64,000 bases of DNA from a virus (taxonomy: Duplodnaviria; Caudoviricetes): the IMG/VR virus record IMGVR_UViG_3300013383_000017, positions 32,001 through 96,000 of that record. One strand, written 5' to 3'. Below, piece after piece: positions 5,237-32,035 of this stretch; within the stretch, counting starts at the first letter, position 1; every line of letters starts with the position of its first letter. The position numbers and the translations under genes were made by a program. Below the pieces are notes generated by a model that saw only the letters and a list, made by a program, of their open reading frames with translations, did no database searches and was not told the origin of the DNA.

Positions 5237-5354
5237 TCCGCTATGGTAGGACTTGAACCTACATCCCTCGCAAATGCGTGCCTGCTTAAAATTTAACTTC
5301 ACTTAAAATTCCCACGCACTCCAAGTGTTCATACCAATTATACCACATAGCGGA
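5237..5354 (-). ncRNA. tRNA-like RNA with the anticodon arm replaced by a long hairpin
   Basis: Acceptor TCCGCTATG/CATAGCGGA, D arm GTATAATTGGTATGAAC, T arm GTAGG-TTCAAGT-CCTAC. About 51 nt replace the anticodon loop. Confidence 0.7.
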
Positions 5355-11452: not shown

Positions 11453-11481
11453 TTTTTATTATTTTTATTGTTTATAATTAG

Positions 11482-11566
11482 TGCTCCCAGTGAGACTCGA
11501 ACTCACACGACCATTTCTGATCAAGGGATTTTAAGTCCCTCTTGGCTTCCATTTCAACATGAGAGC
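11482..11566 (-). tRNA. tRNA-Leu (anticodon TAA)
   Basis: GCTCTCA acceptor, AGGGA-CTTAAAA-TCCCT anticodon arm, long variable arm, GTGAG-TTCGAGT-CTCAC T arm, discriminator A, no encoded CCA. Confidence 0.9.
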
Positions 11567-14401: not shown

Positions 14402-14638
14402 TTATTCTTGGAAGAGGGCATCCAGTTCCTCTGAATGCCACTCTTCCTTTCTGCAATAGCCCGTGTAGAGGACCTTATATCCTCTCTCACGGGCTACCCA
14501 CCAACTGCACTCTTTCTCAAACGAGAAGAGTGCAGCCTCTCTCACTTCGGAGAGAACCTCTTTGAAGTCCTCCCCAGATATACAGCACTCCTGCTGTATA
14601 CCATCGCGGGAAAATCCCGCTATGTAAAATTCATTCAT
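14402..14638 (-). CDS. Small early hypothetical protein
   Basis: GC-rich ORF between two hairpins. Confidence 0.7.
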   Translation of the reverse strand: MNEFYIAGFSRDGIQQECCISGEDFKEVLSEVREAALFSFEKECSWWVARERGYKVLYTGYCRKEEWHSEELDALFQE

Positions 14639-14656
14639 ATATAATCACTTAAAATT

Positions 14657-14683
14657 AAAAGCAGGGATAAATATATCCCTGCT
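14657..14683 (-). terminator. Hairpin terminator
   Basis: AGCAGGGATA-AATA-TATCCCTGCT with a U tract on the minus strand. Confidence 0.75.
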
Positions 14684-14706
14684 ATTATAAACAAACATTG
14701 GTGAGG

Positions 14707-15069
14707 TTAAACCTCACCAATGACATCATTATCTTCTGCGACCTTGCGCAGCAGATAAAAGTTGCCCTGAGGGCTTGATATACCCTCAAAGCATAAAGTA
14801 CCTTCAGCAAAGGCACTTTCCGCACCTTTGCTGAGAATCTGCTCTGCGGCATATGCCGAGCAAAAGCCCAGCACATTGCCACAGACATCTAGGCAAACCA
14901 CCTTGCGCAGTGGCTTGCCTTCAAACAGGACGGCACTTCCGTCCTTGTCGTGATAGACTGGGTACTCTACTTCCCCAGTCTCGTTCCTCCGTGAGAAGAA
15001 CTTAAATCTCACGGAAGATGTCTTCGCAGCCTCCTTGAGGCCTTGAAGAGATAGCAATTTGCTTGCCAT
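14707..15069 (-). CDS. First gene of the leftward block, hypothetical
   Basis: Likely start MASKLL at 15069. GC-rich relative to its flanks. Confidence 0.7.
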   Translation of the reverse strand: MASKLLSLQGLKEAAKTSSVRFKFFSRRNETGEVEYPVYHDKDGSAVLFEGKPLRKVVCLDVCGNVLGFCSAYAAEQILSKGAESAFAEGTLCFEGISSPQGNFYLLRKVAEDNDVIGEV

Positions 15070-15222
15070 GGTACAATAAATTAAATTATCCACAGGGGAG
15101 GGTTCGGATAGTGAATATTCCACTTCCACAAATAAAACAAAAATAAAAAAAAAAATAAAAAAAAATTAAAAATTTTAAAATTAAGATTAGATTAAGTACC
15201 TTTTAATATTTCATTAATACTA

Positions 15223-15253
15223 TTGCATATGTCATTTTTTTTACTTATATTTG
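15223..15253 (+). promoter_or_regulatory. Bacteroidetes sigma70 promoter for the late block
   Basis: TTG...TATATTTG. Spacer nearly identical to 19203-19234. Confidence 0.8.
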
Positions 15254-15545
15254 CCCTGTAAGTTTGAGTTACACAGACTTTATCCCCCTAGGACCAATCC
15301 GCAAGATGAATGGCTAGGGGCTTACAGGGGCGGTCGTTTAATTAATAGACATAGTGAGGACCCCTGACACAAACCGACTATATAAGTATAAGCAATAGTG
15401 ACCCACAGTGTAACTGTGAAAGTCTGAGAGGGAAATGGGTCCATTGGGGCAGAAGCTGAAAAGTTTAAACCGCCTATTGTGAAAGCTAATAGTTAGTCCA
15501 GCAGGTGACTGTATGGTGAGCTAGGTAAAACTGGCTAGGGGATTA
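15254..15545 (+). ncRNA. Candidate large structured RNA / leader
   Basis: ORF-free, GC-rich island with many complementary pairs (see findings). Confidence 0.6.
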
Positions 15546-15568
15546 CTGTATCTAAAAATTAATGAAAT

Positions 15569-16012
15569 ATGAAATATTTTGAATTAGAAGAATTTATAAA
15601 AAGTGATACTGCTAAAAAATACAGTATAGATAATACACCAAGTAAACTAGTTGAGGGGCATATTGTGCAATTAGTTGAAGGGTTGTTAGATCCTATGAGA
15701 GATGCTTGGGCTGATTTTTGTAGAAGAAAGGGTTATATAAGATGTGGTATTAAAGTAACTAGTGGTTATAGATGTCCTACTTTAAATAGTAAGGTGGGGG
15801 GTAAAAGTAATAGTGCTCATTTAACAGGATATGCTGCAGACTTAGTACCTTTGAATGGGGAAACTGAAGTATTTATTTGGTATATACAAAAGTGGTTAAA
15901 AAACAATAATATTATGTTTGATCAGTGTATAGATGAACATAATAAGTGGTTACATATTGCTCTAAAAAATAATAAAGAAGAGCAAAGAAGACAGATTTTT
16001 AAAATTAGATAA
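15569..16012 (+). CDS. Peptidase M15 family endolysin
   Basis: TSGYRC..LN..VGG...SAHL.GYAAD...WLHI. Confidence 0.9.
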   Translation: MKYFELEEFIKSDTAKKYSIDNTPSKLVEGHIVQLVEGLLDPMRDAWADFCRRKGYIRCGIKVTSGYRCPTLNSKVGGKSNSAHLTGYAADLVPLNGETEVFIWYIQKWLKNNNIMFDQCIDEHNKWLHIALKNNKEEQRRQIFKIR

Positions 16013-22566: not shown

Positions 22567-24805
22567 TTTACATATCGAGAATTATTCAAGAGAAATACAA
22601 GATCAGTTTTGGGAATTCTTTAATTCTGTTCCTTTTATTAAGAATTTAACATCTATAGACAGAAAAAGAGCCTGTGAATTACCAAGAGATAGTAGTGGTA
22701 AAATAATAATAGATATTACAAACCCACATATCTTAGAAGATGTAGATTATTTTAGACAGACAGCAATACATTATCAAAAAACTGGAAAGTTTACTGACTT
22801 AAAACCTAATGGTAATAAAAATAGTGATTATTATAAGTGGGTTACAGAAGAGGTAAGAAGATGTAGGGATGGTTATGTAAGAGAAAGTGATGGGGAGTGG
22901 GTAACAGGAGATTACTATTTCTTCCTAAATTATTGCCCAATGCTTATATCTGTTACAGATGATAGTGGTAAAGGGAAAAAGAAAAATAAAGCAAAGAGAA
23001 TAGTTGACTTTCCAAGATTTTGGGAAGGGCACTATTGGATAACACATTATCTTTATAAGGCTAGACAGGAGGGTCATCATGCTGGGGAATTGTCAAGTAG
23101 AGGTCGTGGTAAGACTTATTTAGGTGCTGCTTTTTTAACTAAGAGATTTATATTAGGGGAATCAAAAGATGTTAATAGGGAAGTACAATGTGTAGTGACT
23201 GCCTATGAAAGAAAATTTATTAGTGGTGCTAATCAGATATTGGATATATTTAAAAAGAATATAGATTTTCTAGCAACAAATACAGAGTTTCCATCTAAGA
23301 AGTTAGTTAACTCTATGCAGGGACTACAATGGGTAATGGGATACAAAGACCTTGATACTGATGCTAATAAAGGTACATTAAATTCTGTAATAGGTATAAC
23401 ATCAAAAGATGATGAATCAAAACTAAGAGGTTCTAGAGGTGTTCTCTACTTGATCGAGGAGGCCGGGACCTTCCCTAGACTTCTTAATCTTTATTCTAAC
23501 ATTAGACCTAGTGTTGAAGATGGGGATAATGTCTTTGGTCAAATATTCTTTTATGGTACTGCTGGTGATGAGTCTTCAGATTTTGCTGCAATGCAAGAAA
23601 TGATGTACAATCCTAGAGGATATAATATACTATCATTATCAAATGTTTATGATAAGGAAGGTCAAGGTAGGAAAGAATTTACTTTCTTTTTTCCGGGTTA
23701 TATTAATATGGCTAATTGCTATGATGAAAATGGTAATTCAGATGTAACCAGAGCACTTTTAAATATCCTTATAGATAGATATACTGTAAAGTACAACTCT
23801 TCTGATGTAAATGCAGTAACAAAAAGAATTGCAGAAATACCTATTACTCCACAAGAAGCTATTGTTAGAACTACAGGAAATTATTTTCCTGTAACTGAAT
23901 TAAATGCAAGACTTAATCAAATAGATAATAACCAAAGATTCTATGATGATGTTCTTATAGGAACTTTAGTTTCTGATGGAGAAGGGGTGAAATTTGTTCC
24001 CACTACTGATACACCAATTAGAGATTTCCCTACTAAAGATAATAAGCAGTTAGGAGCTATAGAATTTTATGAATTACCAGTTAAAGATAGTTCAGGTAAA
24101 CCAACTTATGGTAGATATATAATAGGGCATGACCCTGTAGATGATGATTCTTCAGACACTATGTCTTTAACTTCTACTTTTGTTTTTGATTTATTTACAG
24201 ACCAAATAGTAGCAGAATATACAGGTAGGCAACCTTTAGCTAATGATAACTTTGAGATTGTTAGGAAGTTATGTATTTTCTATAATGCAAAGTGTTTGTT
24301 TGAATCTAATAAGAAAGGTTTATATTCTTATTTTGAAATGATGCATTGTTCTTATCTGCTTGCTGATACCCCAGAATATCTAAAAGAAAGAAGTCTAGTA
24401 GCTTCTATTGGTGTAGGAAATAAAGGAAAAGGTGTTTCTGCCACTCTCCCTATTAATAACTATGCTAATTCCCTTATTAGGGATTGGATGTTAAAACCTA
24501 TAGTAAGTCAGACAAAAGTGACAGAAGAAAAAGATGGGGTAATGATAGAAAATGTTGTTGAAACATCTACTTTTAATCTTTATAATATAAGAAATAGAGC
24601 ACTTATTAAAGAAGCTATACTATTTAACGCTAATGGTAACTTTGATAGAATAAGGGCACTTGGTATGGTGATGCTATATAGAGAAGAATATTTGATACTG
24701 TATGGTGGAGATTCTAAGTCTGCTATATCTAGTAGATTTTTATCTCAAGATAATGATTTAGGAGATGACCCATTTTTTAATTCTTTATATAGACAGTCTG
24801 ATTAA
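22532..24805 (+). CDS. terL: Terminase large subunit
   Basis: Walker A SRGRGKT, Walker B LIEEAG, GTAG coupling motif, nuclease IGHDP...FESN...NFDR. Confidence 0.95.
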   Translation: MELNKIQTPLDDLHIENYSREIQDQFWEFFNSVPFIKNLTSIDRKRACELPRDSSGKIIIDITNPHILEDVDYFRQTAIHYQKTGKFTDLKPNGNKNSDYYKWVTEEVRRCRDGYVRESDGEWVTGDYYFFLNYCPMLISVTDDSGKGKKKNKAKRIVDFPRFWEGHYWITHYLYKARQEGHHAGELSSRGRGKTYLGAAFLTKRFILGESKDVNREVQCVVTAYERKFISGANQILDIFKKNIDFLATNTEFPSKKLVNSMQGLQWVMGYKDLDTDANKGTLNSVIGITSKDDESKLRGSRGVLYLIEEAGTFPRLLNLYSNIRPSVEDGDNVFGQIFFYGTAGDESSDFAAMQEMMYNPRGYNILSLSNVYDKEGQGRKEFTFFFPGYINMANCYDENGNSDVTRALLNILIDRYTVKYNSSDVNAVTKRIAEIPITPQEAIVRTTGNYFPVTELNARLNQIDNNQRFYDDVLIGTLVSDGEGVKFVPTTDTPIRDFPTKDNKQLGAIEFYELPVKDSSGKPTYGRYIIGHDPVDDDSSDTMSLTSTFVFDLFTDQIVAEYTGRQPLANDNFEIVRKLCIFYNAKCLFESNKKGLYSYFEMMHCSYLLADTPEYLKERSLVASIGVGNKGKGVSATLPINNYANSLIRDWMLKPIVSQTKVTEEKDGVMIENVVETSTFNLYNIRNRALIKEAILFNANGNFDRIRALGMVMLYREEYLILYGGDSKSAISSRFLSQDNDLGDDPFFNSLYRQSD

Positions 24806-24849
24806 ATTTAAAATTTGATTAAGCAACAATTAATAATACATTTATGCTA

Positions 24850-24880
24850 TTGTATAAATGTATTATTTTTTGTATATTTG
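24850..24880 (+). promoter_or_regulatory. Bacteroidetes sigma70 promoter upstream of portal
   Basis: TTG...TATATTTG, overlapped by the inverted repeat 24832-24867. Confidence 0.7.
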
Positions 24881-24913
24881 CTTACTATAGTAGATTAAAG
24901 AAGTAAATATATT

Positions 24914-30751: not shown

Positions 30752-32035
30752 ATGGGAAAGAAATTTAATGGAAATATTAAGCTTGCATCTGCAATAAATA
30801 GAACAGGTGCTCAACCTCTTGATGATAGTGTTGTTGTTGCAACAGTTGCGGATTTATATAATAGTTTTGGTGCTACTGCTTACGAAGGTATGATGGTATG
30901 TGTCCTCGCCGACCATAATATTTATGTCTTGACAGATGTATCTAAAGTAAGTACAGCAGCCGGATGGAAAAAGATTGGTGATGCATCAAGTGACATATCT
31001 GGTGCAATTGCTGCCCTTGATGTTACTTCAAATAAAAGTGCTTCTGTTGCTGGTATAGCAGTAACTGTTAATCAGACAGATGGTAAAGTACAAAAACCAG
31101 TTGTAGAAGTCACTGCAGGTAGTGTAGCAAGTGGCAATGCAAATGTAGTAACGGGCGGTGCAGTATATACTGCAATTAATAATGCATTAGGAAGTGTCTA
31201 TAAGGTTAAGGGAAGTTATTCTACCCTTGATGCTCTTGAAGATGGTGTAGCCGAAGCAAATAGAAAGGAGGGTGATGTTTATAACATTGAGCAGGGGTTC
31301 ACTCTTGCTAATAAGAAATATCCAGCAGGAACTAATGTTGTGTGGGTTGCAGAGCAGACTATCGGGCAGCTGGTGACCGCAGCACATTGGGATGCTCTTG
31401 GTGGAACGATAGACCTTTCTAATTTTGCCACTGCAGCACAGGGAAAATTGGCTGATACTGCTATGCAGGGTGCTTCTGGTGATAGTTACATATCAGCCGT
31501 AGCTGGTGGTACTGCAGGCAAGACAGTCACAGTTACTGCCAATGTAACAAAGATGGCTGATGTTAAGACTGGTACTGTCGCACTTGCCGATGCTGCTGAT
31601 GTTAAGTCTTATGTTGATACAAAGGCATCAGCTGCAGCATCTGCTGGTGTTACTTCTTTAGGAGGAAAAACTGGTGCTATATCAGTAGACTCTGGGAAGA
31701 CCACACTTGGAGATGTCAATTTCACTATCAGTGATGATAAAAAACTAACTGGTTCAGTTGCTGGTATCAAGTCAGCAGCAGGAAAAGAAGCAAGTGATTT
31801 TGCAACTGCTGCACAAGGAGCAAAGGCTGATAGTGCAGTGCAGTCTGTTACAGGAAGTGGTTGTGTGAAGGTTGTAAAAGATGATGCTTTTACTAATGGT
31901 GCTATTGTTTCTGTTACCACAAAAGATATAAAAACAGCAACAGAGAGAGATGATGGTCTTGTAATTGCATCAGATGTGCAAAGTTATGTTAGCACCTCTA
32001 TAAAGGATGCTATGGTCTGGGCAGAGTTCGCATAA
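30752..32035 (+). CDS. Putative fibre protein
   Basis: AYEGMMV, GDVYN...AGTNVVW...WDALGG, two FATAAQG..AD repeats. Confidence 0.65.
   Translation: MGKKFNGNIKLASAINRTGAQPLDDSVVVATVADLYNSFGATAYEGMMVCVLADHNIYVLTDVSKVSTAAGWKKIGDASSDISGAIAALDVTSNKSASVAGIAVTVNQTDGKVQKPVVEVTAGSVASGNANVVTGGAVYTAINNALGSVYKVKGSYSTLDALEDGVAEANRKEGDVYNIEQGFTLANKKYPAGTNVVWVAEQTIGQLVTAAHWDALGGTIDLSNFATAAQGKLADTAMQGASGDSYISAVAGGTAGKTVTVTANVTKMADVKTGTVALADAADVKSYVDTKASAAASAGVTSLGGKTGAISVDSGKTTLGDVNFTISDDKKLTGSVAGIKSAAGKEASDFATAAQGAKADSAVQSVTGSGCVKVVKDDAFTNGAIVSVTTKDIKTATERDDGLVIASDVQSYVSTSIKDAMVWAEFA

Follow-up and report, generated by a model that had tools for sequence, protein, structure and literature searches.

The window, the 64,000-nucleotide stretch of phage DNA analysed here (positions 32001–96000 of the 141.9-kb IMG/VR record IMGVR_UViG_3300013383_000017), contains a junction at which two gene arms diverge. 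Minus-strand open reading frames (ORFs) occupy the left arm and end at 15072, and the rightward arm begins with an M15 endolysin gene (15569–16012), followed by the gene for a DNA polymerase exonuclease subunit and then by the portal, head and terminase genes. The stretch 15254–15568 between the arms carries stop codons in all six frames and hence holds no ORF, so that coding in any frame was rejected, and its GC content is 0.37–0.45, compared to ~0.27 in the surrounding phage arm, in agreement with an earlier note on this DNA that had described an ORF-free, GC-rich island here. Immediately 5' of this stretch lies a promoter of the Bacteroidetes sigma-A type, a class with the consensus TTTG at −33 and TAnnTTTG at −7, with an A-rich tract just upstream. 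The main features of the junction, all on the plus strand, are as follows.

15222–15253 (+), Bacteroidetes sigma-A type promoter, with ATTG at 15222–15225 (−33) and TATATTTG at 15246–15253 (−7)
15254–15568 (+), whole leader RNA, ~315 nt, running from the −7 box to the first plus-strand start codon, both ends predicted
15267–15281 (+), 5' kissing partner, AGUUACAC at 15267–15274 and then CAGACUUU at 15274–15281
15325–15330 (+), CAGGGG, tentative 5' strand of helix P2, which can pair with CCCCUG at 15361–15366
15361–15366 (+), CCCCUG, tentative 3' strand of P2, paired instead with AGGGG at 15537–41 in the single-sequence fold
15376–15494 (+), conserved core, a three-way junction (covariance model R3: 72 bits, E 4e-20)
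15408–15426 (+), kissing partner in the core loop, GUGUAACU at 15408–15415 and AAAGUCUG at 15419–15426
15535–15555 (+), conserved 3' motif CUAGGGGAUUACUGUAUCUAA, a near-repeat of 15311–15325 (direct repeat)
15569–16012 (+), M15 peptidase endolysin, 147 aa (PF08291, 2e-14; PHROG 894, 3e-29), a neighbour of the RNA and not a conserved partner

Across the whole record, GC content is 0.41–0.49 at 1–41.7 kb and at 138–142 kb and ~0.27 between, so the record may join two phages or be a chimeric assembly; the leader lies within its crAss-like part, whose nearest named relatives are Steigviridae, Asinivirinae. On the left of the junction, the minus-strand ORFs at 14402–14638 (78 aa) and 14707–15072 (121 aa) have a GC content of ~0.5 in an otherwise AT-rich arm and match neither Pfam nor PHROG; for the 121-aa product, a single other cluster (90% identical) exists among 5.8 billion proteins, and no loci were found for its ORF in IMG/VR or JGI metagenomes. 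Terminator-like hairpins occur in the same region at 14696–14722 and 14660–14683, and inside an ORF at 14763–14793. A 17-nt inverted repeat (15202–18/15558–74) spans the leader, with its left arm upstream of the −33 element, and was judged to be a chance match in AT-rich DNA. The only tRNA called by ARAGORN in the window is a tRNA-Leu(UAA) at 11481–11566 (−) on the leftward arm, and a 115-nt Rfam tRNA match of 35 bits at 5238–5352 (−) is not called by that program. In relatives, the GC-rich ORF-free islands are tRNA arrays; a reading of the leader as a degenerate tRNA array was nevertheless rejected, since neither ARAGORN nor the Rfam tRNA model detects anything there.

Folding of the plus strand of the stretch gave −94.8 kcal/mol (z −2.2; minus strand z −0.8), with pair probabilities above 0.9 for most of the predicted helices of the window RNA. 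This single-sequence signal is only modestly above chance, and the case therefore turns on relatives of the RNA. The pairings listed in the earlier note are all present in the sequence, at the following positions.

15254 and 15321 (+), CCCTGTAAG with CTTACAGGG
15268 and 15408 (+), GTTACAC with GTGTAAC
15274 and 15419 (+), CAGACTTT with AAAGTCTG
15285 and 15314 or 15535 (+), CCCCTAG with either of two copies of CTAGGGG
15325 and 15361 (+), CAGGGG with CCCCTG
15329 and 15470 (+), GGCGG with CCGCC
15400 and 15436 (+), GACCCA with TGGGTC

BLAST and nhmmer searches with the RNA found no second copy in 49 endolysin loci, 80 portal loci, INPHARED or the window's own genome, and exact-pattern scans returned only one relative, its near-identical copy (L165) and high-GC chance matches. 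A covariance model (R1) derived from this one sequence, with its predicted fold, produced one weak match of 16 bits at 2063–2231 of L055, the IMG/VR contig that encodes the nearest portal protein detected (58% identity). The match is syntenic, lying at a strand switch with an A-tract, an identical −7 box and 475 nt without an ORF. The window and L055 have the series TATAAGCAA..GTGACC..GGTCC..GGGG..AACCGCC..TTGTGAA in common, with three pairs changed on both sides, and L055 folded independently into the same core. A two-sequence core model (R2), applied to whole records of portal relatives, matched seven records including cr111_1 and five further IMG/VR records, to which cr128_1 was added by blastn; its additional match in the GC-rich half of the window at 1368–1450 (−) (17.8 bits, E ~0.06) was discarded, as it was not recovered by the better model R3. 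That eight-sequence model (R3) matched the genome of crAss001 (NC_049977.1:824–923, 89.5 bits) as well as cr112_1, cr128_1, cr111_1, PhiCrAssBcn22, IAS virus and four IMG/VR lineages with a variant core; the E-values of these models are rough, as they come from short calibrations. The 49 R3 matches aligned over the ~100-nt core comprise 25 distinct sequences, and an exact invariant 18-mer, GAAAAGGTTGAGGGTAAA, is found in 46 IMG/VR contigs, mostly of 92–104 kb.

Every named carrier belongs to the Steigviridae, Asinivirinae, consistent with the Steigviridae placement proposed earlier, and conservation extends across genera whose portal proteins are only ~55% identical. No R3 match at E<=0.1 was obtained in ten named Asinivirinae genomes (DAC15, cr108_1, cr116_1, cr126_1, cr85_1, cr106_1, 'frurule', bajarodcaudo virus, Dulem virus 41 and phi14:2), in which the element must therefore be dispensable or too diverged to be seen.

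The conserved core consists of an outer helix P0, an A-rich internal loop, the helices Pa and Pb, and a GG/CC closure around a stretch of variable length, with Pb enclosing a small ACC/GGU helix that has a 16-nt loop. In the main type of the family, the unpaired runs UGAGAAAAGGUUGAGGGUAAA, YURGGG and UUAACCGCC are near-invariant. The window RNA contains the same P0/Pa/Pb junction, joined by GAGGG(U)AAA, GGGG and CCGCC strands, with all of its helices located within 15376–15494.

15376–81/15489–94 (+), helix P0, with 20 distinct helices in 24 sequences
15392–98/15474–80 (+), helix Pa, with covariation
15400–04/15437–41 (+), helix Pb, with covariation, the GACCCA/TGGGTC pairing of the earlier note
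~15447–48 with 15470–71 (+), Pc, the GG/CC closure, surrounding a lineage-specific hairpin (15453–57/15462–66)
15426–35, 15446–49 and 15467–74 (+), conserved unpaired runs GAGAGGGAAA, GGGG and AAACCGCC, respectively

In alignments fitted to the model, 94.0% and 94.5% of the cells of P0, Pa and Pb are paired, compared to 65% and 69% in shuffles, and a control in which the partner strand was slid left 28–51% of cells paired. Covariation scores were 0.75 and 0.69, compared to ~0.2, values reached by none of 500 shuffles; these counts are somewhat inflated by the fitting of the alignments to the model, and the same helices and compensations are seen in plain MAFFT alignments and in independent single folds. 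As many as five pair types occur at one position in Pa and Pb, with the GACCCA/TGGGTC pairing (Pb) being maintained by compensatory changes in relatives, and frequent G-U pairs in Pa point to the plus strand as the folded one. The large structured plus-strand RNA that had been proposed from the window alone is thus recovered in fold, covariation and strand, with both homologues and covariation in hand. Comparison of relatives provides what we regard as decisive support for the predicted fold, and we are close to certain that this RNA family, and the fold of its core, are genuine.

These changes also bear on whether the conserved object could be the DNA itself, either as a replication origin or a packaging or end-recognition site at the arm junction, or as a functionless remnant of acquired GC-rich DNA. 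The strand switch coincides with the minimum of the cumulative GC skew and adjoins an A-tract and GC-rich orphan ORFs, and the terminal repeat of DAC15 ends near the same junction, all of which would suit such an element. We nonetheless consider it very improbable, given compensatory changes that keep helices and a loop-loop contact (described below) and that would be meaningless for duplex DNA, G-U pairs that fit the plus strand only, a promoter that always precedes the RNA at a fixed distance, and conservation across genera with portal proteins as distant as those above.

Four IMG/VR lineages (L219–L222, records G015, G041, G006 and G004) carry a variant core in which GGUACAGGUAAAU replaces GGUUGAGGGUAAA and ACGGG or CCGGGG is found instead of CCGCC, while P0, Pa, Pb and the loop-loop contact are retained. 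The paired change of two conserved runs may reflect a tertiary contact between them.

A second set of compensatory changes links the core to the 5' part of the RNA. In the window, AGUUACAC (15267–74) is complementary to GUGUAACU (15408–15) over a run of 8 nt, and this kissing contact is extended by CAGACUUU with AAAGUCUG. The earlier note had observed that GTTACAC/GTGTAAC and CAGACTTT/AAAGTCTG lie in a non-nested, pseudoknot-like order, and these two pairings prove to be the kissing contact and its extension. Across the family, the core partner is a variable octamer, the N8 of ACC-N8-UGAGAAAA-GGU in the core loop, whose Watson-Crick complement is found in the first 5' hairpin loop (nt ~14–28) in all 11 lineages compared, with different letters in each (for example UAUACAU/AUGUAUA in crAss001, GACAGUU/AACUGUC in G011 and UGCUAC/GUAGCA in G018). 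The longest Watson-Crick run of a lineage with its own partner averages 6.4 nt, against 3.65 nt for cross-lineage pairs, and the observed sum was matched in 0 of 20000 permutations. Since the first 5' hairpin loop kisses the core loop, the contact joins the 5' domain to the core in a single body. The core loop, enclosed by helix Pb, is not that of a terminator hairpin and has no U run after it.

A scan of the window against Rfam 15 (4227 models, including RNase P, group II domains, riboswitches, ribozymes, Y RNA, GOLLD, ROOL and HEARO) gave nothing at gathering scores save a tRNA elsewhere, and nothing overlapping 15254–15545 even at E<=10; six relatives matched only their downstream tRNAs at E<=0.1. 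The region is unannotated in the RefSeq records of crAss001, cr111_1 and cr128_1, and full-text literature searches turned up no description of the RNA. The expectation that it would prove undescribed in Rfam was therefore upheld, and, as judged from its sequence and predicted structure, this is a new RNA family of a known general kind, the structured phage leader RNA.

The same scan gave no match to RNase P or group II models in the stretch at E<=10, and a resemblance to the RNase P specificity domain that had been suggested from motif order is not supported. That motif likeness, taken as a lead only, would fit a catalytic RNA, which might be a self-cleaving ribozyme acting to trim the transcript, or else a reduced RNase P-like RNA that serves tRNA arrays. 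Like RNase P RNA, the leader is large and held by long-range contacts, it has tRNA genes behind it in several relatives, and an invariant core with pseudoknot-like topology also occurs in ribozymes. The run that recalls GAGGAAAGUCC, however, is in part a covarying helix in the leader and not the conserved P4 strand; no RNase P, hammerhead, twister, HDV-like or other ribozyme model matched the window (E<=10) or six relatives (E<=0.1), and this phage has no tRNA array behind its RNA. Catalysis accordingly seems to us a most unlikely function.

Outside the core and the kissing contact, a tentative helix P2 would form between a C-run that immediately precedes the core and the G-run found ahead of UAGUAR, and its two strands appear by eye to be compensated in relatives (AUAGGGU/ACCCUAU, CAGGGU/AUCCUG, UUGGG/CCCGA); an automated own-versus-cross test did not separate own P2 pairs from cross pairs, so that CAGGGG/CCCCTG of the earlier note stands by eye and not by that test. 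For the GGCGG/CCGCC pairing, the CCGCC strand is invariant in the main type, but no GGCGG was seen in the 5' parts of relatives that were read, and the pairing is not supported. At the other end, most lineages carry the 3' motif in a form like CUAGGGAUUAYUAUAUCUAA, ending 2–25 nt before the start codon in five of them, and its pairing partner, in a simple duplex search, differs between lineages. In the window, the single-sequence fold pairs the 3' motif with 15346–65 and buries 15537–15565 in a 25-bp closing helix. A switch between the two copies of CTAGGGG, as predicted from the sequence, is possible.

Such features bring to mind a riboswitch-like or protein-responsive device, in which the core would sense a ligand or factor and set the pairing of the 3' motif, thereby gating translation of the first gene and entry into the operon. 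The long invariant unpaired runs of the core are typical of a binding pocket, and the nearness of the 3' motif to the start codon in those five lineages, its burial in the closing helix of the window, and the near-repeat of the 3' motif in the G-run 15311–25, such that both could compete for one C-run, would all suit this mode of action. We regard it as unlikely, because the gene that would be controlled is a different one in every lineage, the spacing to the first ORF is 112–240 nt in three lineages, ~135 nt separate the core of the IAS virus RNA from the first tRNA, no consistent partner of the 3' motif emerges across lineages, no known riboswitch class was matched in Rfam and the varying genes allow no ligand to be deduced.

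The RNA directly follows a promoter at the strand switch in all 12 lineages with flanks read, and in 16 of 16 family members examined the promoter lies 116–167 nt 5' of the core in the same layout; the window likewise has a TTTG/TAnnTTTG promoter at the junction of its divergent arms directly before the RNA, the late-type promoter noted earlier (ATTG plus TATATTTG). From the −7 box to the first ORF, five of eight relatives have 303–315 nt and the remaining three 338–478 nt. A copy of the promoter (76% identical) is located at 24802–24881 of the window, before the portal gene, where the leader is 34 nt; of the three or more late-type promoters that this genome has, a single one carries the RNA. 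A further late-type promoter copy was observed at record positions 105902–105950 (window ~73902–73950, past the window end). Upstream of the promoter, most members with flanks read have G-runs or GGGG...CCCC hairpins (GGGGAGGG-like) and, after them, a long A-tract, as at 15090–15200 in the window, at 1780–1900 in L055 and in the upstream parts of L176, L180 and L182; in the members read, this region is the leader side of the divergent minus-strand gene.

The first downstream ORF is unrelated in the seven other lineages read, ranging from 49 to 195 aa and including an HExxH protein (sizes of 81, 195, 61, 83, 49 and 144 aa were recorded). An endolysin directly follows the RNA only in this phage among the lineages read, and the RNA lies upstream of none of 49 endolysin relatives in IMG/VR. 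In crAss001, it is found in the 318-nt gap between the Gp2 and Gp3 coding sequences of the RefSeq record, with Gp3 and Gp4 downstream. Same-strand tRNA arrays follow it in crAss001, IAS virus, G011, G041 and G001, the first tRNA of IAS virus lying ~135 nt past the core; this phage has none. With unrelated first ORFs and no RNA at the endolysin relatives, the RNA goes with the promoter and the arm rather than with lysis, and the earlier suggestion of an endolysin leader that times lysis has to be given up, as the first gene differs in every lineage read and tRNA arrays lie behind the RNA in several relatives. As a separate observation, up to a dozen tRNAs occur on the rightward arm behind the RNA in relatives. 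What looks by eye like a shared small-protein type with WQLPQ and HExGH motifs is encoded by the first or second gene in several relatives (first ORF in L182 and L183, second ORF in L180, gp098 in cr111_1, and Gp4, annotated DUF4157, in crAss001), and it is absent after the RNA in this phage.

A terminator scan found no terminator on the plus strand of 15254–15568, and the sequences read showed no terminator hairpin with a U run between core and first gene. According to work on phi14:2 and crAss001, middle and late genes are transcribed by host RNA polymerase (10.1101/2020.03.07.982082), and the late genes of crAss001 occupy the rightward arm (PMC8375218). The stretch 15254–15568 encodes a member of a new family of ~300-nt, compactly folded leader RNAs of Asinivirinae crAss-like phages, and we find it a plausible, if not yet probable, reading that this RNA acts by antitermination in cis. 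The RNA starts at the host-type promoter at which the leftward and rightward arms diverge, and the folded leader would act in cis on the transcribing host RNA polymerase, in the manner of the put RNA of HK022 or the Bacillus EAR. The polymerase would thereby become resistant to Rho-dependent and intrinsic termination along the rightward operon, which in several relatives begins with untranslated tRNA arrays and runs on into the structural genes. That the leader makes host RNA polymerase termination-resistant over this long operon is offered tentatively, by analogy. We favour the antitermination reading because the RNA is positioned at +1 and is independent of the identity of the first gene, because untranslated tRNA arrays lie behind it, because a terminator hairpin with a U run is apparently absent between core and first gene, and because the fold is rich in invariant unpaired bases.

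Both put, whose RNA is made of two simple stem-loops, and EAR (eps-associated RNA), of ~120 nt, are leaders that bring about processive antitermination. The leader described here resembles them in being a folded RNA that begins right behind its promoter, in front of a very long operon, and in the irrelevance of the first gene's identity; action in cis would also be common to all three. The family has no sequence or fold likeness to either, however; its RNA exceeds put in size three- to fourfold and has both a three-way junction and a kissing loop. The logic proposed for this RNA is also that of the leaders of rrn operons. Several findings run against antitermination: the portal promoter of the same genome has a leader of only 34 nt and other late promoters are without the RNA, the ten named Asinivirinae genomes listed above gave no match, and no tRNA array lies behind the RNA in this phage. 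The 3' motif, which abuts the start codon in several lineages, would fit translational control equally.

The tRNA arrays and the compact fold also allow a different product, a stable non-coding RNA that would be cut from the 5' end of the primary transcript, for instance through tRNA processing by RNase P and RNase Z, and that would serve in trans as a scaffold or decoy, possibly for a TROVE (Ro60-like) protein. Tertiary folds tied by a kissing loop are typical of stable RNAs, and bacterial and phage Y RNAs are bound by Ro60/TROVE proteins. Genes for TROVE proteins (PF05731) were detected in 8 of the 16 RNA-positive records tested, compared to 2 of ~28 RNA-negative ones, although shared ancestry confounds this link. 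The early genes of crAss001 include one for a TROVE protein, a possible ribonucleoprotein component (PMC8375218), and phi14:2 makes abundant, persistent long non-coding RNAs from intergenic DNA near its left end (10.1101/2020.03.07.982082). Like Y RNAs, the leader is a structured non-coding RNA, and some of its carriers, including crAss001, encode TROVE; but no Y RNA or other Rfam model matched it, PF05731 is missing from the window's 141.9-kb record and from seven other carriers, and in crAss001 the RNA (0.8 kb) is not adjacent to the TROVE gene (~97.5 kb on the circular 102.7-kb record). The abundant phi14:2 transcripts, from the g004–g006 intergenic regions, resemble the leader in being transcribed rightward from DNA without ORFs, close to the left end of an Asinivirinae crAss-like genome, yet they are present from the earliest sampled time point, like early transcripts (10.1101/2020.03.07.982082). 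No R3 match was found anywhere in phi14:2, so no homology to its non-coding RNAs was detected, the best score being 13 bits and lying outside that region. With no terminator to define a 3' end in addition, we hold a released RNA to be rather doubtful, and antitermination in cis remains the function we prefer for the leader.

The element, with a complex fold maintained across genera, is present in the laboratory model crAss001. Since that phage and its host can be cultured and published RNA-seq data cover its infection, the fold, its kissing contact and the proposed effect on transcription are all testable. For annotators, the covariance model marks a region that is now left blank or given doubtful 49-aa ORFs. 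Among the viruses of the human gut, crAss-like phages rank with the most abundant, and, to our knowledge, how their late genes are switched on is barely known. It is possible, though we would not count on it, that the RNA represents a new large functional class specific to crAss-like phages with a biochemical activity of its own, as a processive antiterminator that would reprogram Bacteroides RNA polymerase or as a device that senses a ligand or tRNA and licenses the late/tRNA operon. If this were true, late development of the most abundant human gut phages would have a master control point in the leader.
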